From Bacillota bacterium (GTDB lineage: Bacteria; Bacillota; Ch66), in assembly GCA_013178045.1 (NCBI GenBank), contig JABLXP010000001.1, positions 96,780-160,779 of the forward strand: a DNA stretch of 64,000 nt, given 5' to 3'. The notes under the pieces were generated by a model that was not told the origin of the DNA, did no database searches, and saw only the letters and a program-made list of their open reading frames with translations. Of the stretch, positions 3,619-63,483 are shown piece after piece (position 1 is the stretch's first letter; each line of letters opens with the position of its first letter). A program made the translations under genes and the position numbers.

Positions 3619-3643
3619 TACATTAAAAGGAGTTGGTGAGCAA

Positions 3644-4234: not shown

Positions 4235-4270
4235 TAATTACATTAAATTTATCAAAACTCTGATCAGGCA

Positions 4271-4300: not shown

Positions 4301-4413
4301 AAAAAATGGTGTAAAAAATACACACGTCTCTCGAGCTCGGTAAGGGTGCCACCTGTGGTGGTCTTGCCGAAAGATGACAGAGACGGAGGAAAAACCAGAG
4401 AGGAGGTGTTTTC

Positions 4414-6656: not shown

Positions 6657-6658
6657 AG

Positions 6659-32524: not shown

Positions 32525-33262
32525 GTGATCGGTGTGCGGTTTTATTATTTTTTTCAGTTCCGGCGGCTTAAACAACTGGCTTTATTCTTAATGATAATTG
32601 GTATCGCCCTAGAGGTAGTCTACCAGAGTTGGCGCGATCAGGCTACCTTATCAGTCACAAACCCCAACGGACCAATTCGCCGGGGAAATACCGGGCAAAG
32701 GGTGGTCGCTTTGACCTGCAATGTTGATTGGGGTGAGGAATATTTACCAGCTCTTTTGGAGATTCTGGCGAGCCAACAAGTCAAGGTCACCTTTTTTATT
32801 AGTGGGCGGTGGGCTGAGAGAAATCCTGAACTGACCAAGCAGATCGCCGCTGGTGGTCATGAGATCGGCAACCATGGATACTCCCACCCTCACCCGAATA
32901 ATCTTTCCCGCGAACAATTAATACGAGAGATTCAAAGAACTCATGATACTTTAACCCGGATTACTGGTCAGCCAGTGAAGCTGTTTGCTCCTCCATACGG
33001 TGAATGTAGCCCGAAGGTAGTCAACACCACGGCTTCTCTTGGCTACCGGGTAGTCCTCTGGAGTTTAGATACCATCGATTGGCAAAAACCAGTTCCTTCA
33101 GTGATTGTTCAGCGCGTGGTACCGCGAATCCATAATGACGCGATCATCTTGATGCATCCAACCTTCCCAACGGTTAAAGCTTTACCCCAGATTATCGACC
33201 AGCTCCGAAAGCAGGGCTATGAGTTTAAAACTGTTTCAGAAATCAGTTCTTTTCTATCCTGA
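32525..33262 (+). CDS. Polysaccharide deacetylase family sporulation protein (PdaB/YlxY-like)
   Basis: NodB-domain motifs (TCNVDWG, HEIGNHGYSHP) at the position after pnp seen in Bacilli and Clostridia. Signal-anchor N-terminus. Confidence 0.8.
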   Translation: MIGVRFYYFFQFRRLKQLALFLMIIGIALEVVYQSWRDQATLSVTNPNGPIRRGNTGQRVVALTCNVDWGEEYLPALLEILASQQVKVTFFISGRWAERNPELTKQIAAGGHEIGNHGYSHPHPNNLSREQLIREIQRTHDTLTRITGQPVKLFAPPYGECSPKVVNTTASLGYRVVLWSLDTIDWQKPVPSVIVQRVVPRIHNDAIILMHPTFPTVKALPQIIDQLRKQGYEFKTVSEISSFLS

Positions 33263-33325
33263 TTAAAGGAATTTGTCGGATTAGTCGCGAATTACATTTA
33301 AATGGGCAAATTAAGGAGGAATGGT

Positions 33326-34600
33326 ATGCTGGACTACCGAAAAGAGATTCTTCCTAATGGAGTAAGAATAGTCACCGAGGAGATTCCGTACATACGTTCA
33401 GTCGCGATAGGAATATGGGTTGGTGTTGGTTCACGGGACGAAGACGAACACAACAACGGAGTCTCTCATTTTATCGAACACCTCTTATTTAAGGGAACAA
33501 AAAACCGAACAGCCAAGCAAATCGCGGAAGCCTTGGAGGCGGTAGGGGGACAGCTCAACGCTTTTACAACTAAAGAATATACCTGTTACTATGCTCGTGC
33601 TTTGGATGAACATTTTGATCTTGCGGTAGACATACTTTCAGATATATTTTTTAATTCTCTGTTCGATCCCAAGGTAATCGATACCGAGCGCAATGTCATC
33701 CTGGAAGAGATCCATATGTATGAGGACTCTCCCGATGAGCTCATTCATGACCTCTTTGCCCAGGTGATTTGGCAAGGACATCCACTGGGACGGCCGATCC
33801 TGGGTACCATGGCTACGGTTAGTAGCTTGACCCATGCTGATATTATAAATTATTTCCAAAAACATTATGTCCCTGAGGATGTAGTCATCGCTGTGGCTGG
33901 CCGAGTAGAACATGCTGCGGTTATGGATAAGTTGGGTCCGGTATTTGGGGCATGGGAAAGGGAACGTGTTCCCAAAAACGCTGAAGCACCGGTAGCCCGG
34001 GCGACAACAGTGATGAGTGAAAAGAAGACGGAGCAGATCCAGATTTGTTTGGGTACACCCGGGGTGGCGCAGACTGATGACCGCCTGTATATCCTGCATG
34101 TGTTGAACAACGTTTTAGGGGGAGGAGTAAGTTCTCGTTTATTTCAGGAGATTAGAGAAGAACGCGGACTGGCTTACTCTGTGTATTCTTATCACTCGGC
34201 TTATCGGGACAGTGGTTTATTTAGCATTTACGCCGGGACAAGCCCAAATAATATGGAAATGGTGCTTGAACTAATCATGGAAGAAATAAGCAAAATCAAG
34301 CGGGAAGGGATTACTCAGGCAGAAATAGAACGGACAAAAAACCAGATTAAGGGTAATCTGTATCTTGGTCTGGAGAATGTAAACAGTCGAATGAGCCGCC
34401 TGGGCAAGTCTGAACTGTGTTACGGGCGGATCATTTCGCCGGATGAGGTGATCGCCAAGATCGAGAAAGTGACTGCCGATGATCTGATCAATTTAGCCCG
34501 GGAGATGTTTAACGTGAACAAGTTTGCTCTAGCGACGATCGGTCCAAAACGTGAGACACCGGCTGATATGGGCTTTTGGTTAAACAAGGCTGGGTTATAA
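33326..34600 (+). CDS. M16-family zinc peptidase (MlpA/YmxG-like)
   Basis: HFIEHLLFKGT inverted zincin motif. AAGGAGG RBS before the ATG at 33326. The ORF-track start is 33302. Confidence 0.85.
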   Translation: MLDYRKEILPNGVRIVTEEIPYIRSVAIGIWVGVGSRDEDEHNNGVSHFIEHLLFKGTKNRTAKQIAEALEAVGGQLNAFTTKEYTCYYARALDEHFDLAVDILSDIFFNSLFDPKVIDTERNVILEEIHMYEDSPDELIHDLFAQVIWQGHPLGRPILGTMATVSSLTHADIINYFQKHYVPEDVVIAVAGRVEHAAVMDKLGPVFGAWERERVPKNAEAPVARATTVMSEKKTEQIQICLGTPGVAQTDDRLYILHVLNNVLGGGVSSRLFQEIREERGLAYSVYSYHSAYRDSGLFSIYAGTSPNNMEMVLELIMEEISKIKREGITQAEIERTKNQIKGNLYLGLENVNSRMSRLGKSELCYGRIISPDEVIAKIEKVTADDLINLAREMFNVNKFALATIGPKRETPADMGFWLNKAGL

Positions 34601-34618
34601 CATTTGGGGGGAACCATT

Positions 34619-35098
34619 GTGTCAGCAACAATAACGGTAAAAGTGAAAAAACTGTCTCCCCGGGTGGGGAGTGAATTTGAACTACCCTGCTATGCGACAC
34701 CTGGTTCGGCAGGTATGGATTTATGCGCCTGCCTGGACCAGCCAGTGATTATCAGATCGGGAAAGAGGGCGGTTATTCCCACGGGGTTAGCCTTCCAACT
34801 GCCTGAACAGGTTGTCGGGCTGATTTTTTCCCGGAGTGGACACGGTCGCCATCATGGAGTTAAGCTGGGTAACAGTGTTGGGGTTTTAGACTCGGACTAT
34901 ATTGGCGAGGTTCAAGTTGTATTAGAGAATGGCGGCGAAGAAGATTTTACGGTTAAACCGGGGGATCGCATCGCCCAGATTGTGTTTATGCCGGTGTTTT
35001 CCGCCCAGCTCCTGGTGGTGGATGAATTGAATCAGACTGAACGGGGAGCCGGCGGGTTTGGCTCTACCGGTGTTGTTGGCAAAAAGAAATCGCCTTAA
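34619..35098 (+). CDS. dut: dUTP diphosphatase
   Basis: dUTPase motifs (AGMDL, SRSG, GVLDSDYIGE). GTG start after a GGGGGGA RBS. The ORF-track TTG start is 34604. Confidence 0.85.
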   Translation: MSATITVKVKKLSPRVGSEFELPCYATPGSAGMDLCACLDQPVIIRSGKRAVIPTGLAFQLPEQVVGLIFSRSGHGRHHGVKLGNSVGVLDSDYIGEVQVVLENGGEEDFTVKPGDRIAQIVFMPVFSAQLLVVDELNQTERGAGGFGSTGVVGKKKSP

Positions 35099-35184
35099 GG
35101 CGGTTTATTTTGTGCACATAACCCGGGTCAGATCAACATATGGATGAAGTAGTGCAAGTTAACCATTAGTGGGAGGGCCCGGCT

Positions 35185-35454
35185 ATGCGGCTGAGCGAAC
35201 TCGTTGGCAAGGAGATTGTCAATATCTATGATGGAGTCCGACTGGGGGTTGTGGGTGATTCCGACCTGATGATTGATCCCGAAACCGGCCAAATCCAGTC
35301 AATCATTTTGCCGAACCGCACTAATTTCGTTAACTTTTGGGTTGACCGGCAGCACCTGGTGATCCCCTGGGAAGCGGTCCGCAAGATTGGCACGGAAGTG
35401 ATCATTGTGGACCTTGATCATACACACGTCCGTTTGCGGCGATATTTGGGGTAA
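35185..35454 (+). CDS. YlmC/YmxH family sporulation protein (PRC-barrel)
   Basis: LVGKEIVNIYDGVRLGVV...DPETGQI is the YlmC/YmxH signature. Confidence 0.8.
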   Translation: MRLSELVGKEIVNIYDGVRLGVVGDSDLMIDPETGQIQSIILPNRTNFVNFWVDRQHLVIPWEAVRKIGTEVIIVDLDHTHVRLRRYLG

Positions 35455-35599
35455 TTCACTTAATCCTAACCGCTGCTGGACGGTGTTTTTTTTATTACCT
35501 GTTTGGTCTTTTGTGTTTGTTTACACATTTATTGACATAAAAAGACTTTTGTACGAGAATAATCTTTAAAGATGGACAAGGTTGGAAGGAGAGACAAGC

Positions 35600-36406
35600 A
35601 TGACCGAACAAATTCGGGTTGTGGTTACGGGGGCATATGGCAAAATGGGTCGAGAAGTTGTAAAATCAGTGGTTGGTGACCCAACCCTAAAATTAGTTGG
35701 CGCTGTTGATGTTAAGGGTAAAGGAACTGATGCCGGTTATCTTGCGGGAATTGATCCGGTTGGTGTGGCGATTTCTACTGACCTGGAAGGGTTGTTAAAC
35801 GAGGTGCAGGCTGAAGTTTTGATTGATTTTACCAATCCCCAGGCGGTGCTGCGTAACATTCAAATCGCCTTGAATAAAAAAGTCTGCCCGGTTGTGGGAA
35901 CGACAGGAATGACAGAAGATGATCGTCAAGCAGTAGCCAAGCTGGCCGAAGAAGTTGGCGTGGGAGTGGTGATCGCGCCTAATTTTGCCTTGGGAGCAGT
36001 CTTAATGATGCGTTTTGCCAAGGAAGCGGCTCGCTATTTTCCCCATGTGGAGATCATTGAATTACATCACGATCAAAAAGTGGACGCCCCATCGGGAACT
36101 GCCCTACGTACCGCTGAACTAATTTCGGAAGAGCGAAAACCGCATCATCAGGGGGCGATCAACGAGTATGAGAAAATAAAAGGAGTCCGGGGTGGCAACT
36201 TTGAGGGCATGAGGATTCACAGTATTCGCCTGCCTGGACTGGTGGCCCATCAGGAGGTCATCCTAGGGGGGAATGGACAGACTCTGTCTATTCGCCACGA
36301 TTCTATCCATCGGGAATCTTTTATGCCCGGTGTTCTGCTGGCTGTGCATAAAGTTCAACAGGTCAAAGGAGTCATTTATGGTCTGGAAAATTTATTGGAT
36401 TTATAA
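35600..36406 (+). CDS. dapB: 4-hydroxy-tetrahydrodipicolinate reductase
   Basis: IRVVVTGAYGKMG NAD(P)-binding N-terminus and EIIELHHDQKVDAPSGTA DapB motif. The ORF-track start is 35582. Confidence 0.9.
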   Translation: MTEQIRVVVTGAYGKMGREVVKSVVGDPTLKLVGAVDVKGKGTDAGYLAGIDPVGVAISTDLEGLLNEVQAEVLIDFTNPQAVLRNIQIALNKKVCPVVGTTGMTEDDRQAVAKLAEEVGVGVVIAPNFALGAVLMMRFAKEAARYFPHVEIIELHHDQKVDAPSGTALRTAELISEERKPHHQGAINEYEKIKGVRGGNFEGMRIHSIRLPGLVAHQEVILGGNGQTLSIRHDSIHRESFMPGVLLAVHKVQQVKGVIYGLENLLDL

Positions 36407-36566
36407 TGATTTATAATTTGGGAGGGTTTAAAAGCAATAAATAGTGACTAATTGAATATGGAACAGGCATTAACAAGCACCTCCTGATCGCGTGACTCAT
36501 ATATTGGTAGTGGGCATAGAGAACCAATACTAGGAAGGGGAGCCACCGGGAAAAGGAGGGTAGAGA

Positions 36567-37481
36567 ATGAGTGCAAATTTAACCGGTCTTAAAATAGCAG
36601 TATTGGGTGGAGACGACCGTGAACTGGTCTTAATCCCGGAATTGATGAAACTGGGAGCACTGGTTTCGGTAGCAGGTTTCCCTCCCAGGCCAGAACTTGC
36701 TAACGCTAGACTAATCGAAACGGTTGAGGCAGCTATTCATGGAGTAGATGCAATCATCCTTCCGATGCCAGGAATAGATGCAAGCGGCAATATTCGTGCT
36801 GTCTACGCGACTCGTAAGCTGGCGTTAACGGAGGAAATTGTCAGACAAATTCCAGCCGATACCCCAATCATTATCGGAGTGGCGCGGCCAATTTTACGCG
36901 AATGGGCAAACAAGTATCGTTTGCACCTGATTGAAATCGCTGAAATGGACGAAGTCGCGATCTTAAATTCTGTTCCTTCGGCGGAAGGGGCGATTCAGAT
37001 TGCGATGGAAGAACTGCCGATCACCATCCATAGTAGTCAGGCGTTTGTGTTGGGCTTTGGACGAACCGGTAAAACTCTGGCCCGAATGCTGCAAGGGATC
37101 GGGGCACACACGACGGTTGTGGCTCGAAAAAAGGCCGATTTAGCGCGGATTTGGGAGATGGGATTTCGCGGCTTAACTTTTACCGAGCTAACTCAGTATA
37201 TCCAAGAGGCAGAGATTATCTTCAACACGGTGCCGGCCATGGTACTTGATGAAGAGATTCTCCGAAAGGTTAACCGTGAGGCCTTAATCGTTGACCTGGC
37301 TTCCACCCCCGGGGGAACAGATTTCCTAGCCGCAGAGCGGTTGGGAATTAAGGCGATTCTGGCGCCAGGGCTACCTGGAAAAGTAGCACCCAAAACGGCT
37401 GGGCTGATCCTGGCCCGAGTCATTCCACCACTCATTGTCCGCGAAGTTGCCAGGGCACAAAAGCGTTTGCTTTTTAGTTGA
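36567..37481 (+). CDS. spoVFA: Dipicolinate synthase subunit A
   Basis: DpaA family sequence with an AAGGAGGG RBS, followed by the subunit B flavoprotein. Confidence 0.85.
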   Translation: MSANLTGLKIAVLGGDDRELVLIPELMKLGALVSVAGFPPRPELANARLIETVEAAIHGVDAIILPMPGIDASGNIRAVYATRKLALTEEIVRQIPADTPIIIGVARPILREWANKYRLHLIEIAEMDEVAILNSVPSAEGAIQIAMEELPITIHSSQAFVLGFGRTGKTLARMLQGIGAHTTVVARKKADLARIWEMGFRGLTFTELTQYIQEAEIIFNTVPAMVLDEEILRKVNREALIVDLASTPGGTDFLAAERLGIKAILAPGLPGKVAPKTAGLILARVIPPLIVREVARAQKRLLFS

Positions 37482-37502
37482 GGCACGTGGGAGGTGCTGC
37501 AC

Positions 37503-38114
37503 ATGCGTTTGGCAGGGGTTAAAATTGGCTTTGTTATGACCGGCTCGCACTGTACAATCCCTGAGGTCTTGCCGGAGGTAGAAAAACTTATCACCGAGGG
37601 AGCAGAAATAATCCCGATTTTTTCCTATACAGTTAACTGTACTGATACCCGTTTTGGAAAAGCTGAACAGTGGCGAAAGTGGTTTGAAGGGATAAGTGGT
37701 CGTCAAGTGATCGCCTCAATTGTTGATGCCGAGCCGATTGGACCACAAAAGCTGTTGGATTTAATCGTGGTGGCGCCCTGTACTGGCACTACCCTGGCCA
37801 AGTTAGCTAATGGGATTATTGATACCCCAGCTTTGATGGCTATTAAGGCCCATCTGCGTAACCAGCGGCCAGTGGTAATTGCGATCTCGACAAATGATGG
37901 ATTGGGGCTCAACGCTAGAAATTTAGGAATATTAATGAACCTGAAGAATATCTACTTTGTCCCCTTTGGGCAGGATAATCCCCAAGAAAAGGCCAATTCC
38001 CTTGTGGCCCACATGGATCTAATCGTGGAGACAACGATCCTGGCTCTACAGGGTAAGCAGATTCAACCTATCCTAATCAGCCCAAAAGTGCACCAGAATA
38101 GTTGTGCCAATTAG
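37503..38114 (+). CDS. spoVFB: Dipicolinate synthase subunit B (flavoprotein)
   Basis: KIGFVMTGSHCT flavoprotein motif. ATG 9 nt after GGGAGGTG. The ORF-track start is 37494. Confidence 0.85.
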   Translation: MRLAGVKIGFVMTGSHCTIPEVLPEVEKLITEGAEIIPIFSYTVNCTDTRFGKAEQWRKWFEGISGRQVIASIVDAEPIGPQKLLDLIVVAPCTGTTLAKLANGIIDTPALMAIKAHLRNQRPVVIAISTNDGLGLNARNLGILMNLKNIYFVPFGQDNPQEKANSLVAHMDLIVETTILALQGKQIQPILISPKVHQNSCAN

Positions 38115-38223
38115 ACATTGGGGATTTTTTTGTAGCCGGTCGTAAAATATTGTACCCCTTCCGAAACGGTTATGCTAAAATTATAAAAACAATAAAATCT
38201 ACCCGCAGTAGGAGGTAACAACA

Positions 38224-39234
38224 ATGAAAAAATATAACGTGGCGGTAGTTGGGGCGACCGGTGCTGTCGGGCAGGAAATGCTGAAGGTACTGGCGGAGCG
38301 AAATTTCCCAGTAGGAGAGGTTAAGATGCTGGCCGACCCCCGAGAAGAGGGCACTAAAATTACCTTCAAGGGTCAGGAATATACCGTTTTTGGTGCAGAG
38401 CCAGAATCTTTTAATAATGTGCAAATCGCTTTGTTTGCCGCGGGAGAAGTAGTCAAAGAATTAGCCCCGGCAGCAGTAAAAAAAGGTGCGGTTGTAATCG
38501 ACAATAGTAGTACTTTTCGACTTGATCCCGCTGTTCCACTGGTGGTGCCGGAGGTTAATCCAGAAGACGTTCGACAGCACCAGGGGATTATTGCCAACCC
38601 AAACTGCTCAACCATCATTATGGTTGTTGCTCTCAAGCCAATTCATGATGCAGCTGGGATTAAACGGGTGGTTGTTTCAACCTACCAGGCAGTATCAGGA
38701 GCGGGAAAAGCTGGCATTGAAGAACTAAAACTGCAAACCCCAAAAGTTTTGGCCGGCGAGCCGATTCAGCCGGATGTTTTCCAGTATCAGATTGCATTTA
38801 ATTTAATCCCCCATATTGATATTTTCGTGGAAAAAGATTACACCAAAGAAGAAATGAAGATGGTTTATGAAACCCGGAAGATTATGCATGAACCCGATAT
38901 GGCCATTACTGCGACCACGGTGCGGGTGCCGGTCTTCCGCAGCCATTCTGAATCGGTAAACATCGAAACCGAAAAGAAAATTACTGCTGAGGAAGCACGC
39001 GAGATCCTGTGCCGGGCTCCAGGAGTGATTGTTTTAGATAACCCGGCAAAAAAAGAATATCCGATGCCGATCATTACTTCAGATACCGACGAAGTTTATG
39101 TTGGACGCATTAGAGAAGATATATCGATCGATAAAGGTTTAAACCTCTGGGTCGTGGCCGATCAAATTCGCAAGGGGGCGGCCACCAATGCGGTCCAGAT
39201 TGCAGAAATACTGGTGAAGGAGAACTTGCTCTAA
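38224..39234 (+). CDS. asd: Aspartate-semialdehyde dehydrogenase
   Basis: VAVVGATGAVG and the NPNCSTI active-site cysteine motif. Confidence 0.95.
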   Translation: MKKYNVAVVGATGAVGQEMLKVLAERNFPVGEVKMLADPREEGTKITFKGQEYTVFGAEPESFNNVQIALFAAGEVVKELAPAAVKKGAVVIDNSSTFRLDPAVPLVVPEVNPEDVRQHQGIIANPNCSTIIMVVALKPIHDAAGIKRVVVSTYQAVSGAGKAGIEELKLQTPKVLAGEPIQPDVFQYQIAFNLIPHIDIFVEKDYTKEEMKMVYETRKIMHEPDMAITATTVRVPVFRSHSESVNIETEKKITAEEAREILCRAPGVIVLDNPAKKEYPMPIITSDTDEVYVGRIREDISIDKGLNLWVVADQIRKGAATNAVQIAEILVKENLL

Positions 39235-43417: not shown

Positions 43418-43507
43418 AAGATATGCAGGATCAACCTGCGTATCTTTTTTTGCTGAAATCGCATACTAGAACTGTTAATGGAAAGATTAAGGAGAGTGGG
43501 AAATCGT

Positions 43508-44302
43508 ATGGATGGTTGGTTTGCGAATTTGTCAAATTTGTCAGATAGCCTGAGTTCTGAGAGGACGGCGCAGAACGAACCGGTGGCACCGGCTGAAGCT
43601 CCAAAGGGGCGAAAGAAACAAGCGGGAAAAAAACTCGAGGCAGTCAAGGAGTTGGGCCAACTGGATGTCCCAGAGATGAAGAGTAATATCCACTGCATGC
43701 CGATTGTCGGACAGATCGAAGGGCACCTGGTCTTGCCACCCCAAAATAAGACCACTAAATATGAACACGTCATTCCTCAACTGGTGGCTGTGGAGCAAAA
43801 CCCGGAAATCGAAGGTATGCTGGTGATTTTGAACACGGTGGGAGGCGATGTGGAAGCTGGCCTAGCCATCGCCGAGATGATCGTCAGCATGTCAAAACCA
43901 ACGGTTTCCCTGGTACTGGGCGGAGGACATTCGATTGGTGTCCCGATTTCGGTGGCATCCAACTATTCATTTATCGCCGAAACCGCGACCATGACCGTTC
44001 ACCCGATCAGACTGACCGGCCTGGTCATTGGCGTGCCGCAAACATATGAGTACTTGGACAAGATGCAGGACAGGGTCGTCCGCTTTGTTACTGAGCACTC
44101 CAAGATTGATGATAAAAAGTTTCGTGAACTGATGTTCAGGACCGGCGAGCTAGCCAGGGATATCGGCACTGTTTTAGTAGGTAAAGACGCGGTTGAAGTC
44201 GGCCTGATCGATGAAGTTGGGGGACTGGCCAAGGCAGTAGCCAAGCTGAAGGAATTAATCCGCCTCCACAAAGAAAGGAATCAGGGGGTACCGATTCAAT
44301 GA
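43508..44302 (+). CDS. tepA: ClpP-fold translocation-enhancing protein TepA (YmfB-like)
   Basis: ClpP/crotonase-like core ([18 protein letters not shown]) at the conserved position after rnjA. RBS-supported ATG at 43508. The ORF-track start is 43478. Confidence 0.7.
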
Positions 44303-47634: not shown

Positions 47635-48684
47635 ATGGTTATGCATAAAATAATCACCGCTGAAGAAGCAGTAAAATTGACTAATCAGATTTTTGTAGAT
47701 GTCCGTTCGGAAAGTGAGTTTGCGGAAAACACGTACCCGGGGGCGGTCAATCTACCAGTATTAAACGATCAGGAGCGGGTACAAGTCGGTACTATTTATC
47801 ATCAAGTCAGCCCCCAAGCCGCCAAGATTAAGGCACTGGAGATCATCGCACCGAAATTGCCAGGTCTGGTAGCTCAGATCGCGGAGTGGAGTCAAAAAGG
47901 GGAAGTAGTCCTCTTTTGCTGGCGGGGGGGCATGAGGAGTCAGGCCCTGGCTACAGTCTGCGACTTGATGGGGATTCCGGTTCGGCGTCTAGCCGGAGGG
48001 CTCAAAGGATATCGACGCTTTGTCAATGCCTACCTGAATAATTTAGAGCTACAAGCAGAGATAGTCGTTTTACATGGTTTAACCGGGGTAGGCAAGACAG
48101 ATATGCTCAAGGAACTCAGTAAGCTTGGGGTGGCGACGATAGATCTGGAGGGATTGGCACATAATCGGGGCTCTGTTTTTGGTGATATTGGGATGCCTCC
48201 CCCTCCGAGTCAAAAAAGTTTTGAGGCCGCGCTGGTCCAACATTTGATTCGCTTTGCTCCAGAGCGGTTTATCGTGGTTGAGTGTGAAAGCAGACGGATT
48301 GGCCGCAATGTAATACCTGAGCGATTTTTTGCAGCCATGCAGGCTGGTCGCCACATATTGCTGTATGATACCCTGGAGAATCGGATCAACCGGTTAGTCA
48401 AAGTATATGTAGATGATGACCAGGACAATCTCCATGAACTGCAGGCGGCGGTGACAGCCTTAGAAAAACGACTGGGGAAGAAAAAGGTGGCGGAGCTCAA
48501 CGAATTGATCCGTTCCCGAGATTTTACCACTGTGGTAAAAGTGTTGTTGCTTGAGTACTATGATCCTCTGTATAATTATCCGAGTGGCCCAAGTCCGGAA
48601 TATGAGTTGTGTGTTGACGCGGGAAATATTCAGGCCGGGGCGGCCCAAATTAATGAGTATCTGAATTCAGTAGCGTCTGACTAA
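47635..48684 (+). CDS. selU: tRNA 2-selenouridine synthase (rhodanese domain plus P-loop)
   Basis: N-terminal rhodanese domain with the catalytic Cys loop (LFCWRGGMRS), followed by Walker A LHGLTGVGKT. This is the MnmH/SelU architecture. Confidence 0.75.
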   Translation: MVMHKIITAEEAVKLTNQIFVDVRSESEFAENTYPGAVNLPVLNDQERVQVGTIYHQVSPQAAKIKALEIIAPKLPGLVAQIAEWSQKGEVVLFCWRGGMRSQALATVCDLMGIPVRRLAGGLKGYRRFVNAYLNNLELQAEIVVLHGLTGVGKTDMLKELSKLGVATIDLEGLAHNRGSVFGDIGMPPPPSQKSFEAALVQHLIRFAPERFIVVECESRRIGRNVIPERFFAAMQAGRHILLYDTLENRINRLVKVYVDDDQDNLHELQAAVTALEKRLGKKKVAELNELIRSRDFTTVVKVLLLEYYDPLYNYPSGPSPEYELCVDAGNIQAGAAQINEYLNSVASD

Positions 48685-51482: not shown

Positions 51483-52295
51483 ATGTTCAAACACAAGGGG
51501 TTTGTTCTACTGATGGTAACACTGCTTGTGGCCAGCTTGGTGTTAGGGGTAGTCGGGTGCGGTCAGAAAACCGAACCACCTAAAGAGCCTGCTAAACAAG
51601 CCGGCGAGCCGGCCAAACAACCGTCCAAGAAACTAGTGGTAGGAACGGATGCCACTTATCCACCCATGGAGTTTCATGAAAAGACCGGAGATAAGGATGT
51701 TATTGTCGGGTTTGACATTGATTTTGCCACGGCTCTGGCCAAGGAAATGGGTATGGAAGTAGAATTCAAGGACACTGCTTGGGACGGGATCATTCCAGCT
51801 CTGCAGGGCGGGAAGTTTGATATGATCGTCTCTTCAATGACCATTACTGATGAACGGAAGAAGACGGTAAACTTTTCTGATCCCTATTTTGAGGCTGGCC
51901 AGATAATCGCTGTACGACCTGATAACACAACGATCACCAAACTAGAAGACCTAGCGGGGAAACGCATCGGTGTCCAGATCGGCACCACTGGTGATGAAAT
52001 GGCAACGAAGGAGACGAAGGGAAAGGTCCAGCGATTTAACACGATTAGTGATGCGTTCATGGCCCTGGAGCAAGGTCGCGTTGACGCGGTTTTAAACGAT
52101 AAACAGGTGGCCGAGTATTACATTAAGAAGGGAGCCAAGGTGAAGACGGTTGGTCCGCTCTACTCTAAAGAATACTACGGGATCGCGATCAAGAAAGAGA
52201 ACACCGAATTGTTGAAACAAGTCAATGATGCCCTGAAGAAGCTGAAAGACAGCGGCAAATACCAGGAGATTTATAACAAGTGGTTTGGCAAATAA
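51483..52295 (+). CDS. Polar amino-acid ABC transporter substrate-binding lipoprotein
   Basis: Lipobox LVLGVVGCGQ and a family-3 SBP fold. Confidence 0.85.
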   Translation: MFKHKGFVLLMVTLLVASLVLGVVGCGQKTEPPKEPAKQAGEPAKQPSKKLVVGTDATYPPMEFHEKTGDKDVIVGFDIDFATALAKEMGMEVEFKDTAWDGIIPALQGGKFDMIVSSMTITDERKKTVNFSDPYFEAGQIIAVRPDNTTITKLEDLAGKRIGVQIGTTGDEMATKETKGKVQRFNTISDAFMALEQGRVDAVLNDKQVAEYYIKKGAKVKTVGPLYSKEYYGIAIKKENTELLKQVNDALKKLKDSGKYQEIYNKWFGK

Positions 52296-52333
52296 GCAGA
52301 TTTAGATATATTCTTAATCCAGATGGTTTAAGC

Positions 52334-52360
52334 AACCGGTGAGCATCCTCACCGGTTTTC
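52334..52360 (+). promoter_or_regulatory. Intercistronic stem-loop between the SBP and permease genes
   Basis: AACCGGTGAG-CATC-CTCACCGGTT is a 10-bp perfect stem followed by TTCACTT. Confidence 0.45.
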
Positions 52361-52393
52361 ACTTGATCGATTCGATTAGTAAGGGGAGAAAAA

Positions 52394-53047
52394 ATGGGTG
52401 CTTTAGATATCGTGTTGGATTCATTGCCTAGTTTACTGTTAGGGGCGAGGGTAACCCTCACCTTGACCGGATTAGCGGTGCTGTTTGGAACGATTATTGG
52501 TACCTTCGTGGGGATGGCCCGCATCTCCAAGAACAAGCTTATCTATGGCGTCGCTACAGCTTATGTCGAGATAATCCGTGGTACACCGCTCCTTTTACAG
52601 ATCTACTTTTGTTTTTTTGGTCTGGGTCAATTAGGAATCAATTTGGATGAGGTCACAGCTGCCGTCGTGGCCTTGGCAGCTAACTGTGGGGGTTACACCG
52701 CTGAGATTGTCCGGGCAGGGATTCAAGCTATTCCCAAAGGCCAGATGGAAGCCGCACGCTCTTTGGGCATGACTTACTCCCAGGCCATGCGCAAAGTCAT
52801 CCTGCCCCAGGCCTTTCGCCAGATGATTCCACCGATGGTTAACGAATTTACTGCTATGCTTAAAGACTCTTCCTTGGTCTCGATTCTTTCGATCACAGAG
52901 TTAATGCGGGCCGGGGTTATTGTTGTGACTAGAACATACCAGGCGATTCCTTTGCTCTCCGCTGTTGGTGTTATTTACTTTATCATGACGTTCATCCTGT
53001 CACAGCTGGCGAATTACCTGGAGAGGAGGTTGAGGACGGGTGATTAA
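52394..53047 (+). CDS. Polar amino-acid ABC transporter permease
   Basis: HisM/GlnP-type permease with the EAA loop region. Confidence 0.85.
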
Positions 53048-53762
53048 AGTAAGAAAACTGAATAAAAAATTTGGCCGCCTCCACGTCTTAAAAGATATCA
53101 GTCTGTTTGTGAATCCTGGAGAAGTTATAGTGATTATTGGACCCAGTGGCTCCGGCAAGAGTACCTTCTTGCGGTGCCTCAATCAGTTGGAGAGCATTAC
53201 CAGTGGCGAGATTTTTGTTGATGGAGTATCGCTGACCGATCCCCGAACTGACCTCAATCTGATTCGCCGTCGGATCGGTATGGTTTTTCAACAGTTTAAT
53301 CTTTTTCCTCACCGCACTGCATTGGATAATATTACCATGGCACCGCTGGAGGTGTTGAAGCAAAAACGCGAGCATGCGGAAGCTGTGGCTTTTGACCTGC
53401 TGAAAAAGGTTGGCTTGGCGGATAAGGCCCAGGCCTATCCCAGTCAACTGTCGGGTGGACAACAGCAGCGGGTGGCGATCGCCCGAGCGTTGGCCATGCG
53501 GCCGGATATAATGTTGTTTGATGAACCAACATCGGCTCTCGACCCAGAAATGATTAACGAGGTCCTCGATGTGATGAAAGACCTCGCCCGAGAAGGGATG
53601 ACGATGGTGGTGGTCACGCACGAAATGGGTTTTGCTCGTGAGGTAGCCGACCGGGTTTTATTTATGGACGACGGGCGGCTCTTAGAAGAAGGCGAACCCA
53701 CGGATATCTTTTCTAATCCGCGTCACGAGCGAACCAGGGAGTTTTTAAGTAAAGTGTTGTAA
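53040..53762 (+). CDS. Polar amino-acid ABC transporter ATP-binding protein
   Basis: GPSGSGKST Walker [16 protein letters not shown] signature and [10 protein letters not shown] Walker B. Confidence 0.9.
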
Positions 53763-53790
53763 TCGATGTTTGGGGTTATTGAACCGTTAA

Positions 53791-54798
53791 TCACTCGTAA
53801 AAGTGGTTGAATCCGCGTGGTGTAAGTTCCGTCCTTGAACCGTTGGCACTCTGCAGCCAGCGGCCAGCGGGAGCCGGTAAAATTTCTCCGACCACAGTTA
53901 ATGGACAGCCAGTATCGGCTATAACCTCGGTCAAACTGGGCAGATTGGCAGGAGCAGTGGTAAAAACCAGTTCATAATCCTCACCGCCGTACAGCGCCCA
54001 GTTTATTTCTTTTGCGTTAAAGTGACGGGCAATGGCGCGCGTAGTGGTCGAGATCGGCAGAGCCTCAACCCAAAGCACGGCCCCGGTTTGACTGGCACTG
54101 CAGATTTCTGTAACTTCACTGGCCAATCCATCACTAATGTCATTCATTGCCGTAACCAGACCGGTGGCCGCCAGCCGCTGCCCGATCTCGACCCGTGGCT
54201 CTGGTCGGAGGTGGCGGCGTATGACTGCTTTGGTTTCGGGTAGATGGCAAACAGGGGCATTGGCCAGTACGTGCAGACCAGCGGCTGAAGCCCCCAGGTC
54301 GCCAGTGACCACGATCACGTCTTCTACCTGTGCGCCTGACCGTAAGACAACATGGTCCGGCGTTGCCTCGCCTAAAAGCGTCAGACTGAGACACACACCG
54401 CCGGTGGAGCGGACGGTGTCTCCACCCACGATGTTTACCCCAAACTGCCGAGCCAGTTGAATCATCCCGGTGTATAACTCTTCCACTTCTTCTACCGTGA
54501 GACTGGGTGGCAGGGCGATGGTGACCAGGGCACTTAAAGGCCGTCCTCCCATGGCAGCGATATCGCTTAAATTAATGGCCATGGCTTTGTGGCCTAGATC
54601 CGCCAGGGAAGTCCATTCTCGCCGAAAATGGATCCCTTCTACCAGCATATCGGCGGTGGCCAGCAGGACCCGTTCGGGCTGCTGCGGCAGGACTGCGGCA
54701 TCATCGCCGATCCCAACCAGAACAGTAGACGGATTACAGATGGACAAAGGTTTTATGCGGTTAATTAGACCGAACTCACCAATTTCGTGCAGTTTCAT
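53791..54798 (-). CDS. thiL: Thiamine-monophosphate kinase
   Basis: ThiL/AIR-synthase-related fold. Last gene of the thi operon. Confidence 0.85.
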   Translation of the reverse strand: MKLHEIGEFGLINRIKPLSICNPSTVLVGIGDDAAVLPQQPERVLLATADMLVEGIHFRREWTSLADLGHKAMAINLSDIAAMGGRPLSALVTIALPPSLTVEEVEELYTGMIQLARQFGVNIVGGDTVRSTGGVCLSLTLLGEATPDHVVLRSGAQVEDVIVVTGDLGASAAGLHVLANAPVCHLPETKAVIRRHLRPEPRVEIGQRLAATGLVTAMNDISDGLASEVTEICSASQTGAVLWVEALPISTTTRAIARHFNAKEINWALYGGEDYELVFTTAPANLPSLTEVIADTGCPLTVVGEILPAPAGRWLQSANGSRTELTPRGFNHFYE

Positions 54799-55432
54799 AC
54801 ATCCTACTCCTATGCAAAATTTCAGTCAGCATTTCCTGGGTTGTCTTGGCAATGTCTGGAGCAGTAACAATAGCAGAAACAACCGCGATCCCATCAGCTC
54901 CAGCCGAAATCACCTCGCGAATATTGGTCAGGTTGATGCCTCCGATGGCTATCAGGGGGAGGGAAACGACCTGACGGATTTCCTTTAATCCAGCAAGACC
55001 GACGATATCCCGCGCATCACTTTTAGTGGTCGTTGGGTAAATAGGTCCGACCCCAAGATAGTCGGCTCCTGCTGCCTGAGCAGCCAGGGCTTCGGCGACG
55101 GAGGTGACGGAAATCCCAAGGATTTTCCCAGGGCCTAATAACTTTCGGGCTACTTCGGCTGGCAAATCATCCTGCCCGAGGTGAACGCCATCTGCGTCAA
55201 CGGCGAGGGCAAGGTCAACCCGGTCGTTGATAATGAATGCAGCACCCGCTCTGGCGGTGATTTCTCGCAGTTCTACTGCTTGCTGCCAGAGTTGACGTTC
55301 AGGAAGTGCTTTTTCCCTCAGTTGAACTGCTGTTGCTCCTCCAGCCAGGGCTTGGGTAATCACCTCTCGGTTGCTACGAGGAGAAGACAACTGCTGATCG
55401 GTGATGACATATAAGGTTCCGTTAAAAAACAT
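54776..55432 (-). CDS. thiE: Thiamine-phosphate synthase
   Basis: ThiE TIM-barrel motifs (LYVITD, VQLREK, GADGVHLGQ). Confidence 0.9.
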   Translation of the reverse strand: MFFNGTLYVITDQQLSSPRSNREVITQALAGGATAVQLREKALPERQLWQQAVELREITARAGAAFIINDRVDLALAVDADGVHLGQDDLPAEVARKLLGPGKILGISVTSVAEALAAQAAGADYLGVGPIYPTTTKSDARDIVGLAGLKEIRQVVSLPLIAIGGINLTNIREVISAGADGIAVVSAIVTAPDIAKTTQEMLTEILHRSRMYETARNW

Positions 55433-56259
55433 TAATTAACCTGACCTCCCTGGCAATTTTCAATAGTGAAGCGCCCCATACGCCGGATTGTTTGTTCATC
55501 CAGATTATACAGGCTGTCGAAGAAAGCGGCTTTAAAACTGGCTGGCCCAGTAGTTTCAGGCCTTTGGGCGGCTAATTCTCCAGCGATCCCAAAGCAGACG
55601 AGAGCGCCAAGGGAAGCCAGGACGGGATCTCGTTCTACAGCGGCGAAAGTGGCAATCACGGAGGCAGCCATACACCCGGTGCCAGTGATCGTTCCCATCA
55701 GAGGATGCCCATTGTCTACATAGGCCCAGATCTGACCGTTGGTGATGAGGTCGCGTGGTCCGGTGACGACGACGGTGGTTTGGTGGGTATTAGCTAGTCG
55801 AGTCGCTCCTTCTGCTAGATCACCGGTAACGCCAACCGCTTCTACTCCTTTGATTTCTCCTTGCAGGCCAGCCAGGATGGCGATCTCCGCCGAATTACCC
55901 TTGATAACCGTTACCTTGACGGCATGCAAAATTGCCCGCGCGCTGTCTGTTCTAAGTCTGGTGGCGCCAACACCGACCGGATCCAGGATGACTGGGATAT
56001 TTTTCGCATTTGCCTGTTGGCCAGCGAGAATCATGGCCTTGATCTGGTCAGGAGTGAGGGTACCGATATTAAGCACTAGGGCGCCGGCCATCGTGACCAT
56101 CTCTTCGACTTCTTCTCGGGCATGGGCCATGACAGGCAACGCACCCATTGCAAGGGTAATGTTGGCACAGTCATTGATCGTTACCTGATTGGTAATATGA
56201 TGGATTAGCGGTTTGGACTTACGCAGTTGATTGAAGCGGTTGACAATTTGGTTAAGCAC
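55432..56259 (-). CDS. thiM: Hydroxyethylthiazole kinase
   Basis: ThiM family sequence ([14 protein letters not shown]...). Confidence 0.9.
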
Positions 56260-56677
56260 GAGATATTCCTCCTAATTTATTAATTATTGTTTGTTCCAGA
56301 GTATAACAGCGATAACGGATTTTTTTGAAACTGACCCCGATTTCTGGAGACAATAGTTTCCCGAATTCCTCCAGCACCCGCATGGCTTCCTGAATTCGAC
56401 GAAGGTTGGCCCGCACCAGGTCAGTTAAGTTTACCCTCGGTGTCTGACCATCTCTGGCTAACTCTGTGCCCACATCACCGTCGGTGTTTCGTTTTACCAG
56501 GAGTTCAGATGCATTGGGAATGCTAAATTCAGCCTGAAGTAGGTCGTGTCTCAACTGTTTTATACTGTCTGTTAGAACTTGGTCGTTCAGGATGAAGCGG
56601 GCGACTTCTTCGACTACGCGCAATCCTTCACGTGCTCGATTAAGGTTGGCATCGATAATCCGATAGATGGTATGCAT
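56252..56677 (-). CDS. Hypothetical protein (141 aa), the first gene of the riboswitch-controlled thi operon
   Basis: Translationally coupled to thiM and immediately downstream of the TPP riboswitch. The sequence [22 protein letters not shown] resembles N-terminal extensions I have seen fused to ThiE in other bacteria. This family assignment is not certain. Confidence 0.5.
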
Positions 56678-56694: not shown

Positions 56695-56744
56695 GAGTTA
56701 AATAAACAGCAAAAACCGTGAAGCCTGATCCAGGTTTCACGGTT
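56695..56744 (-). terminator. Riboswitch expression-platform terminator (OFF-state)
   Basis: On the minus strand, CCGTGAAACCTGGATCAGGCTTCACGG is followed by TTTTTGCTGTTTATTT. Confidence 0.5.
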
Positions 56745-56858
56745 GATTTCTCACCCGCTTCCCTACGCTGGTATTACCCAGATCAGGTGCAAAGGGTCAA
56801 CGGCTTCATGCCATTTCTCAGCTCTGTTTTAACGAGCTCCCCTAGCGGTTATACGTTC
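56745..56858 (-). ncRNA. TPP (thiamine pyrophosphate) riboswitch aptamer
   Basis: The minus-strand sequence contains CTAGGGGAGC...GCTGAGA...ACCCTTTGCACCTGATCTGGGTAATACCAGCGTAGGGAA. This matches the THI-box consensus (GGGG, CUGAGA, ACCUGAUCUGGAUAAUGCCAGCGUAGGGA). Confidence 0.85.
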
Positions 56859-56871
56859 TTTAATTTCCTTC

Positions 56872-56900
56872 AATATACCATATCTGGTTTGAGGTGTAAA
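56872..56900 (-). promoter_or_regulatory. Sigma-A promoter of the thi operon
   Basis: On the minus strand, TTTACA, a 17-nt spacer, then TATATT, about 15 nt upstream of the riboswitch. Confidence 0.5.
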
Positions 56901-56960
56901 GATATAAAACTCAGGGACAGACTTTCCAGACATCTCCTAAAGAACCTGACTATCGGCTTG

Positions 56961-56969
56961 TGGTATAAT
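56961..56969 (+). promoter_or_regulatory. Extended -10 promoter element (TGgTATAAT) divergent from the thi promoter
   Basis: TGGTATAAT at 56961-56969. The -35 element is poor. Confidence 0.3.
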
Positions 56970-57012
56970 GTCTCGTAGGTTACAGCGGGTTAGAGAAAGG
57001 AGTTGACTCCCT

Positions 57013-57594
57013 ATGAAGGTGAAAGACATACGCATTATCGTTGCTCTGCTGGTCATGATTGGGACCTTCACCGTGCTCGTGGGAGGCAACTTCATTTACC
57101 AACGGTATTTTGTTCAGCAACCTTTGGCGGCGCTCCTAGCCCAGAACAGTGATGTTCACAACCTGCAGATTGAGCAGGAGGCTGACCGGGTGGTGATTAC
57201 GGTTGAATTGGGCGAAGTTAAGAACCTGCAGGATACTTATCGTGAGTTAGAAGAAATGGTCCGGAAACATATGGGGTCAAAGAATTGGGAGCTCAGGATT
57301 ATTGATACCCGGACGCCGAATCTGGAACGGGTTTGGCATGCTTCCCAGTTTGCCCTGTATGAAGCGATCGTCCAGGGAAACTTTACTCACATGGCTAGTG
57401 TAATTGAGCAGTTAGCTAAAGGTGCTGGTCTTGACCGCTACGGATTGTATATAGACGAAAATTACCTCTACCTGCAACTGCATCAAGACCAAAACTTTCT
57501 TTACGCTGTTCTTCCGAGGGGTTCAGTGCTGGGTAATCAACTGGCTCCAACAAGAATGGCCTTGGAAGGACAAGGGGGTAAAGCCAGTGATTAA
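57013..57594 (+). CDS. Hypothetical single-pass membrane protein (193 aa)
   Basis: N-terminal TM helix IIVALLVMIGTFTVLVGG and an AAGGAG RBS. Its stop overlaps the start of the downstream FtsH-like gene by 8 nt. Confidence 0.5.
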   Translation: MKVKDIRIIVALLVMIGTFTVLVGGNFIYQRYFVQQPLAALLAQNSDVHNLQIEQEADRVVITVELGEVKNLQDTYRELEEMVRKHMGSKNWELRIIDTRTPNLERVWHASQFALYEAIVQGNFTHMASVIEQLAKGAGLDRYGLYIDENYLYLQLHQDQNFLYAVLPRGSVLGNQLAPTRMALEGQGGKASD

Positions 57595-59071
57595 AGAGAT
57601 TCTGGTGGGTGTCGGCCTGGGAATTTTGGCTTTTCTGGCGTTTATGGGAGTCAATGTTGCTCCGTTTTTGTTGATGGGAGGGCTGATCGCTACCTTCTAT
57701 TTCATCGTTGAGAAGAAGGGCCTGTTGAAGTCTACGGTAATCGGTGAGTATGGACTGCGGACGGAGTTCACTTTTGAAGACATTGGTGGACAAGCCACGG
57801 CCAAGCAAGAATTGAAAGAGGCACTGGAATTTATAATTCAGGCGGACAAAATTCGTGAAATGGGTATTCGACCATTAAAGGGAATTCTTTTAACCGGTCC
57901 GCCGGGAACGGGAAAAACTTTACTGGCGAAAGCAGCCGCTACTTATACGCGGTCTTTATTCCTGGCTGCTTCCGGCTCTGAATTTATTGAAATGTATGCT
58001 GGAGTCGGGGCGCAACGGGTTAGAAGTCTATTCAAAAGCGCACGCGAACAGGCTAAACGTCAGGGGAAAAACAGCGCGATCATATTTATTGATGAGATTG
58101 AGGTGCTTGGTGGTAAAAGGGGATCGCACACCAGCCACCTGGAATATGATCAGACCTTGAACCAACTCCTGGTCGAGATGGATGGAATCTCTAACCAGGA
58201 CGATATTCGTTTGCTGGTGATTGGGGCGACCAATCGGATGGACATGCTGGATCCAGCCTTGCTTCGTCCCGGCCGGTTTGACCGACAGGTGCGGGTCGAC
58301 CTTCCCGATAAAGCAGGACGTTTAGAAATCCTCCGATTGCATACGAAGAATAAGCCGCTGGATGATGAAGTTGATCTTGAGCAAATCGCCAGGGAGAGCT
58401 TTGGTTTTTCCGGGGCTCACTTAGAGAGCCTGGCCAACGAAGCCGCAGTTTTAGCCTTGCGTGAGGGAGCAAAGGTGATTACTCAACATCACTTGCGCGA
58501 GGCGATTGACAAGGTAATCATGGGAGAAAAACTTGATCGCAAACCAACGCAGGATGAACTTGAACGGGTAGCAGTTCATGAAGCTGGTCACGCGGTGGTG
58601 AGTGAAGTGGTGCGAGCAAATTCGGTGGCCCGGGTGACCATTTCTCCCCGGGGTGGCGCGCTGGGTTACGTTCGACGGACACCCGAAAACGACCAGTACC
58701 TTTATACCCGGGATTTTATTGAGAAGCAGATTATGATTTGCCTGGGCGGAGCAGTTGCCGAGGAAGTGGTGTTAGGAGAGCGGAGCACGGGCTCGTCTAA
58801 TGATTTTGAAGAGGCTGTCCGGCTGGCCAAAAAGATCATCAGTGCTGGATTGTCTCCTCTGGGGATTATCTGCGAGGAGAACATCTCCTCAGAAACAATG
58901 CACCAAGCTATAAAAGATATCATTGCTCAACAGGAGTTTCAGGTAAAGCGTCTGGTTGAGCGGTACCGCAGTAGCATCATCGGGATCGCCAAGGTATTGC
59001 TGGACAACGAAAGCTTACCTGGCGAGGAATTGCGTGCCTACCTTTATAATAGTGTAAGCAAAGCTTCGTAA
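57587..59071 (+). CDS. Short FtsH-family AAA+ zinc metalloprotease, with two closely spaced TM helices and no periplasmic domain
   Basis: Walker A GPPGTGKT, Walker B IIFIDEIE, second region of homology GATNRMDMLDPALLRPGRFDR and M41 zinc site HEAGHAV. 494 aa. GTG start 9 nt after GGGGG. Confidence 0.8.
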   Translation: MIKEILVGVGLGILAFLAFMGVNVAPFLLMGGLIATFYFIVEKKGLLKSTVIGEYGLRTEFTFEDIGGQATAKQELKEALEFIIQADKIREMGIRPLKGILLTGPPGTGKTLLAKAAATYTRSLFLAASGSEFIEMYAGVGAQRVRSLFKSAREQAKRQGKNSAIIFIDEIEVLGGKRGSHTSHLEYDQTLNQLLVEMDGISNQDDIRLLVIGATNRMDMLDPALLRPGRFDRQVRVDLPDKAGRLEILRLHTKNKPLDDEVDLEQIARESFGFSGAHLESLANEAAVLALREGAKVITQHHLREAIDKVIMGEKLDRKPTQDELERVAVHEAGHAVVSEVVRANSVARVTISPRGGALGYVRRTPENDQYLYTRDFIEKQIMICLGGAVAEEVVLGERSTGSSNDFEEAVRLAKKIISAGLSPLGIICEENISSETMHQAIKDIIAQQEFQVKRLVERYRSSIIGIAKVLLDNESLPGEELRAYLYNSVSKAS

Positions 59072-59077: not shown

Positions 59078-59115
59078 AGCCTGAGACAAAAAAGTTTCAG
59101 GCTCACTCTTTTTAG
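59078..59115 (+). terminator. Rho-independent terminator after the FtsH-like gene
   Basis: AGCCTGA-(12-nt loop)-TCAGGCT followed by CACTCTTTTT. Confidence 0.6.
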
Positions 59116-62866: not shown

Positions 62867-62937
62867 ATCGCTTAAATCGAAATAGAGAGAAAAAAAGAAG
62901 GATTTTGTTTAAAGATCGCGAAATAATATCAACACTT

Positions 62938-63483
62938 ATGACCGAAAGGAAGGCGACCACTACTGTGTACATAAAAACTAGGACGGTGCATGCCGGCTCC
63001 GATAGCGTTGAACTCTTGACATCAATTATGATGCGTTACCCGGAAGTTGGGACAATTAATTTTGAACCAGCCAGACGACTACTAAAGTTTACTTTTATTC
63101 TCTCACAAGTGGTAACGAATAAGGAGATTGATTTATTCCGGGAAAAGCTGGTCACTATGGTTGATGCTTATAATCATTTAGAGGGCCGGGAACCAGGTGT
63201 GGTCGAAGTGACAGCTACTTTTTGTAAACAGTTAACACTCTTGGAAATTAGTCGAGACATCGAGTCCCTGGATTATGACGAAATTGCCTTATTAATGGCC
63301 ATCCTGCACCAGCAATTTGGTTCCCTGATTATGACCGAGGAGAGCGAGGGGATGCTGGAAGAGGAAATTCTCTTGCAGGAAGACTTGATCCGACAGATGC
63401 TAGAGAGCTTAAGGTGCTGTGAACAAGAAAAGAAACTGGTTGCCTTTCGTGAAGAGGGCCGCGTTCTGGTATTCAATAAATAG
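62938..63483 (+). CDS. Hypothetical protein between rny and ymdB, start uncertain
   Basis: Long ORF (track 62818-63483) whose 5' end contains the rny terminator, so the true start must be internal, for example M at 62938. No family recognised. Confidence 0.35.
   Translation: MTERKATTTVYIKTRTVHAGSDSVELLTSIMMRYPEVGTINFEPARRLLKFTFILSQVVTNKEIDLFREKLVTMVDAYNHLEGREPGVVEVTATFCKQLTLLEISRDIESLDYDEIALLMAILHQQFGSLIMTEESEGMLEEEILLQEDLIRQMLESLRCCEQEKKLVAFREEGRVLVFNK

Follow-up and report, generated by a model that had tools for sequence, protein, structure and literature searches.

A conserved two-gene locus of Bacillota encoding an FtsH-type protease without ectodomain and a candidate membrane partner of an unnamed family

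The stretch analysed here comprises 64,000 nucleotides (nt) of DNA from a Bacillota bacterium (positions 96,780 to 160,779 of contig JABLXP010000001.1, assembly GCA_013178045.1) and is referred to below as the window. It contains two adjacent genes on the plus strand, here called A and B; A encodes a small membrane protein and B a protease of the FtsH type. An earlier reading made from the sequence only (the sequence-only reading) described a GTG start of B that overlaps the stop codon of A by 8 nt, and assigned the pair a promoter and a terminator of its own. All three were confirmed: the two reading frames share 8 nt in the list of open reading frames (ORFs) and in the sequence, an extended -10 promoter conserved in orthologous upstream regions precedes gene A, and an intrinsic terminator follows gene B (Table 1). 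The Shine-Dalgarno sequence of B is located inside the 3' end of A, as translational coupling would predict. The GTG start itself is well supported by this Shine-Dalgarno sequence, by its position as the earliest start codon past an in-frame stop ending at position 57454, and by the N-termini of B orthologues, which read M(I/L)KE(I/V)..G and match the prediction from the GTG start.

Table 1. Positions of the features of the A-B locus and of the adjacent inserted DNA, numbered from the first nucleotide of the window (aa, amino acids; bp, base pairs).
Feature	Position	Strand	Remarks
Gene A	57013..57594	+	ATG start, 193 aa; bitopic membrane protein of an unnamed family
Gene B	57587..59071	+	GTG start, 494 aa; FtsH-type AAA+ zinc metalloprotease without ectodomain
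Shine-Dalgarno sequence of gene A, AAAGGAG	56996..57002	+	10 nt before the ATG; read from the sequence
Shine-Dalgarno sequence of gene B, AAGGGGGT	57572..57579	+	Within the 3' end of gene A
Transmembrane helix of A, residues ~8-29	57034..57099	+	Hydropathy; conserved L19, L22, G24 and G25; basic residue 7 before the helix
Alpha/beta domain of A, residues ~45-169	57145..57519	+	AlphaFold2; beta-beta-alpha-beta, alpha-alpha, beta-beta-beta
Transmembrane hairpin of B, helices 2-19 and 25-43	57590..57715	+	AlphaFold2; turn G-Y-N-V-x-P in the family, GVNVAP here
AAA+ ATPase core of B, residues 100-238	57884..58300	+	Pfam; Walker A GPPGTGKT, pore-1 YAG, Walker B IIFIDE, second region of homology with arginine fingers
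Peptidase M41 domain of B, residues 322-483	58550..59035	+	Pfam; HEAGH, residues 331-335, at 58577-58591
Intrinsic terminator	59078..59113	+	10-bp stem and 6-nt loop (59078-59103), then a T run; closes the two-gene operon
Extended -10 promoter, TGGTATAAT	56961..56969	+	Sigma-A type, TGnTATAAT; conserved in orthologous loci
Upstream promoter element, TTCCAGACATCTCCTAAAGA	56924..56943	+	~52 to 31 nt before the presumed transcription start
Inserted block between pgsA and A-B	51483-56677	- (thi part)	ABC transporter (binding protein, permease, ATPase) and thi operon
TPP riboswitch of the thi operon	56743..56853	-	86.8 bits
Promoter of the thi operon	56872..56900	-	Sigma-70-like; diverges from the A-B promoter within the same ~330-nt intergenic region

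The sequence-only reading had credited B with complete AAA+ and M41 (HEAGH) modules and with two back-to-back transmembrane helices that leave hardly any loop outside the membrane, and both descriptions held. Pfam searches of B returned the AAA domain (PF00004, E = 2.5e-38), AAA_lid_3, and Peptidase_M41 (PF01434, E = 4.2e-32), the last over profile positions 5-189 of 191. Matches to the sequences of solved FtsH chains reached approximately 1e-100 over residues 60-489. The FtsH_ext domain (PF06480) gave no Pfam match in B at E-values up to 1, TIGR01241 is matched only from model position 156 onwards, with 449.5 bits against a cut-off of 600, and the score against PRK10733 was 312 bits (cut-off 1008). 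In the AlphaFold2 model of B (predicted local distance difference test, pLDDT, 81) the two helices of the hairpin are separated by a turn of five residues, and a disordered linker (residues 45-58) leads to the AAA+ and M41 folds. The third zinc ligand is predicted by homology to be the Asp in GSSNDFEEA. B belongs to the FtsH/M41 family yet departs from canonical FtsH in two respects, the ectodomain and the equivalog score.

Conservation within the B family was determined from 121 aligned sequences. The motifs GPPGTGKT, IIFIDE, YAG, and ATNR...RPGRFDR were conserved at 0.8-1.0, and both His and the Glu of HExxH as well as the third-ligand Asp (G-x-S-N-D-F) were each present in 100% of the sequences. 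Walker A, the Asp-Glu of Walker B, the pore-1 Y-A-G, the arginines of the second region of homology, and HExGH are essentially invariant. Since the catalytic and ATPase motifs are retained in this way, B is expected to be an active protease and no pseudo-protease; the intact motifs further suggest that it would assemble into a hexamer and carry out ATP-dependent proteolysis. Conservation extends into the membrane hairpin, where 98% of the sequences have G21, 100% have P26, and G8 is likewise essentially invariant, and it appears to exceed what a passive anchor would need. The best 120 database matches to B have lengths of 482-526 aa and, with the exception of one near-identical copy (98%), identities to it of 57-73%. 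Moorella, Thermoanaerobacter, Thermincola, Calderihabitans, Zhaonella, and Collibacillus are represented among them, and orthologues are approximately 60% identical across classes. By these sequence comparisons B is placed in a distinct, tightly conserved FtsH subfamily. Database entries for its orthologues are named 'AAA family ATPase', 'cell division protease FtsH', or even 'vesicle-fusing ATPase'; the last name is a propagated mis-annotation.

Gene A had been read as encoding a 193-aa protein with a sizeable soluble domain and no recognisable family. No significant match to A was found in Pfam, NCBIfam, PHROGs, PADLOC, or the PDB sequences, and these searches likewise placed it in no known family unrelated to proteolysis. 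When 1.84 billion cluster representatives were searched exhaustively with phmmer, relatives were identified in 697 clusters at E<=1e-3 and in 431 clusters at E<=1e-10. Nearly all of the best 150 relatives are 165-205 aa in length and align end to end, and every one of the few that carry a name is called 'hypothetical protein'. Far from being an orphan, A is a member of a large family that has no name and corresponds to no described one.

In the alignment of the A family, K or R occupies position 7 in 85% of the sequences, G24 and G25 are conserved in 70% and 65%, respectively, and P37-L38 is nearly invariant. The conserved residues of the domain are Y76, D98, R100, L104, E117, G122, D148, Y153, Y164, and R169, and the domain ends in the family motif YLYE(V/I)(V/I)PR (FLYAVLPR in the window copy). 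The PR of this motif is followed by a variable, low-confidence tail of 5-25 residues, here residues ~170-193, which are disordered. The soluble domain of the sequence-only reading was recovered in a confident AlphaFold2 model (pLDDT 90.8, predicted template modelling score 0.81) as an alpha/beta domain of approximately 125 residues: helix 3-43 is followed by a beta-beta-alpha-beta unit (48-97), two helices (102-137), and three strands (142-168). In the fold search this domain weakly resembled SpoIIIAH and YhcN.

Several identities considered for A, or for the pair, were rejected. A was rejected as a lipoprotein because the family lacks a consistent lipobox. A is not a homologue of the FtsH ectodomain, to which neither homology nor structural equivalence was found in Pfam and fold searches, and it is not an SPFH/Band-7 protein of the HflK/HflC type, for which Pfam and NCBIfam gave no match. 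An anti-phage defence system was also discarded: A has no PADLOC match, and B has only generic AAA matches (IetA, TRIP13).

The sequence-only reading had tied its proposal of a joint membrane protease to co-conservation of the pair in other genomes, and such co-conservation was found. In four distant A homologues (27-32% identity) the gene immediately downstream encodes an AAA+M41 protein of 482-494 aa, after which comes cinA. Genomes were scanned with a degenerate DNA pattern of Y-N8-YLYE(V/I)(V/I)PR, which yielded 89 loci, nearly all of them from Bacillota (Desulfofundulus, Desulfoscipio, Desulfotomaculum, Thermincola, Moorellaceae, Syntrophomonadaceae, Syntrophaceticus, Thermacetogenium, Limnochordia, and Phosphitispora), and an A-family ORF was present at 84. 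A B-type ORF was located downstream on the same strand at 79 of these 84 loci; one further locus has the start of B at its edge, two have no sequence room for B, and two lack B despite room. The distance from the stop of A to the start of B was determined for 76 pairs. Overlap was the commonest arrangement (31 pairs, 41%; 19 by 4 nt and 7 by 8 nt), and gaps of 0-40 nt were found in 20 pairs, of 41-300 nt in 18, and of more than 300 nt in 7, the last with 0.4-2.2 kilobases (kb) of inserted DNA. Starting from B, we found A abutting it or overlapping it by 4 nt in Thermoanaerobacter kivui and in Collibacillus ludicampi, of the class Bacilli (E-values with the hidden Markov model of the A family 3e-51 and 4.5e-55, respectively). 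The genes around the pair are entirely different in these two genomes. As the pair is intact there amid different neighbours, it moves as a unit, and its recurrence in approximately 80 independent genomes is far beyond chance.

The DNA between A and B encodes a thioredoxin-like protein that has CxxC and an N-terminal region of low complexity in locus L082 (5595-6149), a 94-aa Cys-rich protein in L057 (reverse complement, 3448-3732), and a 309-aa protein, perhaps a transposase, in L035 (reverse complement, 3516-4445). Loci L019 and L075 are also among those with extra intervening DNA, and approximately 1.3 kb without a clear gene was seen in that group. All five loci may come from Desulfotomaculum relatives, a label carried by L082 only. 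Three contigs of metagenome-assembled genomes that contain A bear labels from outside the Bacillota: L058 (Betaproteobacteria), L036 (Actinomycetota), and L023 (Armatimonadota). B is also present in L058 and L036, cinA lies downstream in L036, and rimO-pgsA lies upstream in L023; the three contigs are probably mis-binned or mislabelled. L023 is, with L039, one of the two loci that have A and no adjacent B, and in both A follows rimO-pgsA and the next gene is unrelated and on the opposite strand.

The spacing data bear on whether A and B are operon mates only, sharing regulation or a pathway (for example envelope or lipid homeostasis near pgsA) and forming no complex. Such a relationship would accommodate the 18 pairs that are 41-300 nt apart, the 7 pairs with an unrelated gene or mobile DNA between them, and the two genomes in which A has no adjacent B, and it would suit a region that is as a whole a long-conserved array of housekeeping genes. 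We nevertheless consider it very improbable, because the pair relocates jointly to unrelated contexts, overlapping stop and start codons are the commonest arrangement, and what B has lost is precisely what a bitopic partner could provide.

The promoter of the pair was compared across 82 orthologous upstream regions. TGnTATAAT was found in 59 of them and the longer TRTGnTATAAT in 52 (means in shuffled sequences 0.3 and 0.1, respectively), in most loci 20-43 nt before the start codon of A. In the same regions there was no enrichment of the -10 motifs of sigmaE, sigmaK, or sigmaF/G, of Spo0A boxes, or of LexA boxes. Control by Spo0A or a sporulation sigma factor was rejected on this basis, as was membership of the SOS regulon despite the nearby recA. 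The suggestion in the sequence-only reading that B is a sporulation-specific paralogue is not supported by a promoter of the sigma-A extended -10 type that is conserved in this manner.

A further element lies upstream of the -10 sequence. The pattern TTTCCAG-N3-4-TT.C.TA.GGA occurs at a fixed spacing from the -10 in many orthologous loci, in fifteen besides the window, and looks like a putative regulator site. Five matches to the pattern occur in the window, a number within chance expectation; the copy upstream of A is the closest of them (two mismatches, against three in each of the other four). One clade of eight loci has GTTTRCC direct repeats with 10-11-bp spacing in the same place. None of the sigmaH, CodY, Zur, GerE, and Spo0A consensus sites fitted the element. 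At six loci hardly any spacer separates A from the preceding pgsA, and A is therefore probably co-transcribed with rimO-pgsA there.

These results can be set against the hypothesis that the pair is chiefly a sporulation device that acts on the membranes of the forespore or the mother cell. Carriers of the pair are found in Bacillota only and belong mostly to endospore-forming lineages (for example Moorella, relatives of Desulfotomaculum, Thermincola, and Phosphitispora), and the organism of the window carries dpaA, dpaB, and a ylxY/pdaB-like gene. In its passages on FtsH, the paper of Garcia et al. 2021 (PMC8136486) describes the Firmicutes-restricted paralogues FtsH(P1) and FtsH(P2) beside the housekeeping FtsH, and proposes a role in sporulation for FtsH(P2), the distribution of which tracks SpoIID; B may correspond to one of these two. 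The weak likeness of the A fold to SpoIIIAH and YhcN points in the same direction. The conserved sigma-A promoter, the missing enrichment of sporulation motifs, and the probable co-transcription with housekeeping rimO-pgsA in several genomes argue otherwise, as does the presence of the pair in T. kivui, which has been described as non-spore-forming. We regard a chiefly sporulation-related function as unlikely.

The topology of A determines on which side of the membrane its domain would act. Its charge pattern favours an N-in/C-out orientation with the domain on the extracytoplasmic side, which we hold to be probable, with considerable room for doubt: the N-terminal flank of the helix is basic, with no acidic residue, and the C-terminal flank is mixed. 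Overlap of the two genes is frequent, yet no A-B fusion was found among the best 150 A relatives and 120 B relatives listed. Topology would forbid such a fusion only with the domain of A outside, and the absence of fusions was therefore counted in favour of this orientation. The cysteine contents of A (0.28%) and B (0.54%) are too weak an indicator to decide.

The same topology bears on a hypothesis in which A is a dedicated substrate or switch of B, that is, a membrane-anchored regulator with a tail or helix that is engaged by B and signals by being proteolysed. FtsH begins degradation at unstructured ends, and A would offer one in the variable tail that follows its PR motif; A also evolves much faster than B, and the conserved upstream promoter element suggests regulation. 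If the tail is outside, however, as the charge pattern favours, it cannot reach the cytoplasmic pore of B. A has no DNA-binding, anti-sigma, or enzymatic domain in Pfam or NCBIfam, and tight translational coupling suits stoichiometric assembly better than a protease and its substrate. We consider a substrate or switch function rather improbable.

We propose instead that A is a dedicated partner of B in a single membrane-bound, ATP-dependent zinc protease, a reading that we favour by a slight degree; physical contact between the two proteins, taken by itself, we rate a little above an even chance. B would be the motor and the protease, forming a hexamer through its AAA+ and M41 domains and anchored solely by the tight two-helix hairpin, with approximately five residues exposed on the far side of the membrane. 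A and B would share one transcript driven by sigma-A, with frequent translational coupling, and the single glycine-containing transmembrane helix of A would pack against the hairpin. The small residues conserved in the membrane segments of both proteins (G24 and G25 in A; G8, G21, and P26 in B) make these segments look specific. The domain of A, displayed most probably on the extracytoplasmic face, would stand in for the FtsH ectodomain or for HflK/HflC, and could stabilise or regulate assembly and choose or gate substrates in the membrane. The analysis shows the gene pair with its domains, the intact catalytic motifs of B, the co-conservation and coupling of the two genes, and the type of their promoter; that the two proteins touch, how A is oriented, and what it does are parts of this model that we infer. 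A more far-reaching version is a natural split FtsH in which A and B occur in equal numbers, presumably six each, and A adds transmembrane helices and a ring of domains similar to ring-building motifs on the outer face; the whole would be an ancient quality-control or signalling machine specific to Bacillota, with a conserved promoter-proximal regulator site. We offer this version tentatively and consider it doubtful.

Several observations weigh against a partnership of this kind. Two loci (L023 and L039) have A without B despite room for it, and in 7 of the 76 pairs the two genes are separated by more than 300 nt. A diverges much faster than B (approximately 30% versus 60% identity). An extracytoplasmic domain is questioned by the K/R counts, which are higher in the 15-residue C flank (2.1) than in the N flank (1.5), by the absence of lipoprotein variants from the A family, and by the best Foldseek matches of A, which are to the cytoplasmic two-domain alpha/beta proteins uS3 (a ribosomal protein) and KhpB at a TM-score of approximately 0.3. 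The fold matches of A are in general weak and generic (Z <=8.3).

The wider genomic setting of the pair is also conserved. rimO was found upstream at 48 of the 71 loci with enough flanking sequence, and cinA and recA were found downstream at 50 of 58 and 28 of 35 loci, respectively, so that the pair has its conserved place between rimO(-pgsA) and cinA-recA. The window has the order rimO, pgsA, a three-gene amino-acid ATP-binding cassette (ABC) transporter, a minus-strand thi operon, A-B, thpR, recA, and rny. The thi operon, which is preceded by a thiamine pyrophosphate (TPP) riboswitch (Table 1), contains an AIR-synthase-like gene of the thiL type, thiE, thiM, and ThiD2. In most other genomes the interval from pgsA to A is short or absent. 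Compared with the conserved site, the order in the window identifies the transporter and the thi operon as lineage-specific insertions. The sequence-only reading had placed the pair in an accessory stretch; this placement has to be reversed, since the flanks of the pair are conserved and the transporter and thi genes are what was inserted.

Other genes of the window were noted in passing. A 192-aa protein without a Pfam match is encoded at ~62905-63483 (6147-6725 of locus L001), between rny (RNase Y) and a ymdB-like phosphoesterase. A tRNA 2-selenouridine synthase (MnmH, 396 bits) is encoded at 47635-48684 between ftsK and rodZ and implies the use of selenium in tRNA modification. Sporulation genes are located at 32525-39234 and 43478-44302 and include a ylxY/pdaB-like deacetylase, dpaA, and dpaB, the last two with scores above curated cut-offs; a 274-aa ClpP-family protein next to ftsK/spoIIIE was taken to be TepA-like. 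From the dpaA, dpaB, ylxY/pdaB-like, and TepA-like genes we infer that the organism is of an endospore-forming lineage.

The role of the FtsH ectodomain, and the selection and gating of membrane substrates, are still debated. If our proposal is correct, the pair offers a genetically separable system for the extracytoplasmic contribution, in which the ectodomain has been removed and a separate protein is found beside the protease. The pair would then be a widespread, unnamed two-gene module and a natural experiment on the purpose of the external part of FtsH. It would provide a first functional context for a protein family of 697 clusters that has no database model, and B represents a distinct and highly conserved subfamily of FtsH, to which annotation pipelines now give generic labels. 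The significance would be smaller if A were a passive anchor or a mere operon neighbour of B.

Full-text literature searches for short or ectodomain-less FtsH, clostridial ftsH1/ftsH2, and FtsH operon adaptors found nothing on the A-B pair, and the passages on FtsH in the main text of PMC8136486 mention neither a missing ectodomain nor a partner gene. B shares with canonical FtsH, as represented by TIGR01241 and the structures 2CE7, 7TDO, and 7VHP, the AAA+, lid, and M41 domains, HExxH and the third-ligand Asp, an aromatic pore loop, arginine fingers, and two N-terminal transmembrane helices. Canonical FtsH, however, has an extracytoplasmic domain between these helices where B has its short turn. 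B is also shorter (494 aa versus a model of 598 positions), has Y-A-G in the pore loop in place of the F-V-G that is the pore motif of canonical FtsH, and, unlike canonical FtsH, is encoded together with gene A. For A, proteins with a ring-building motif (SpoIIIAH, EscJ/PrgK) are among the closest comparisons. Dedicated membrane proteins that deliver or select substrates for a protease of the FtsH family are known from yeast, where Yme1 works with Mgr1/Mgr3, and from Bacillus subtilis, where FtsH works with the rhomboid protease YqgP; these proteins have no sequence or fold relation to A and are not known to be translationally coupled operon partners of their proteases. HflK and HflC differ from A in that A is much smaller and has no SPFH/Band-7 domain, and HflKC binds the FtsH ectodomain, which is absent from B. 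The likeness of A-B to E. coli FtsH-HflK/HflC, to the mitochondrial m-AAA/prohibitin complex, and to FTSH4-SLP1 lies in the arrangement: in each of these systems separate bitopic proteins, with their bulk on the non-cytoplasmic side, modulate a membrane AAA protease.

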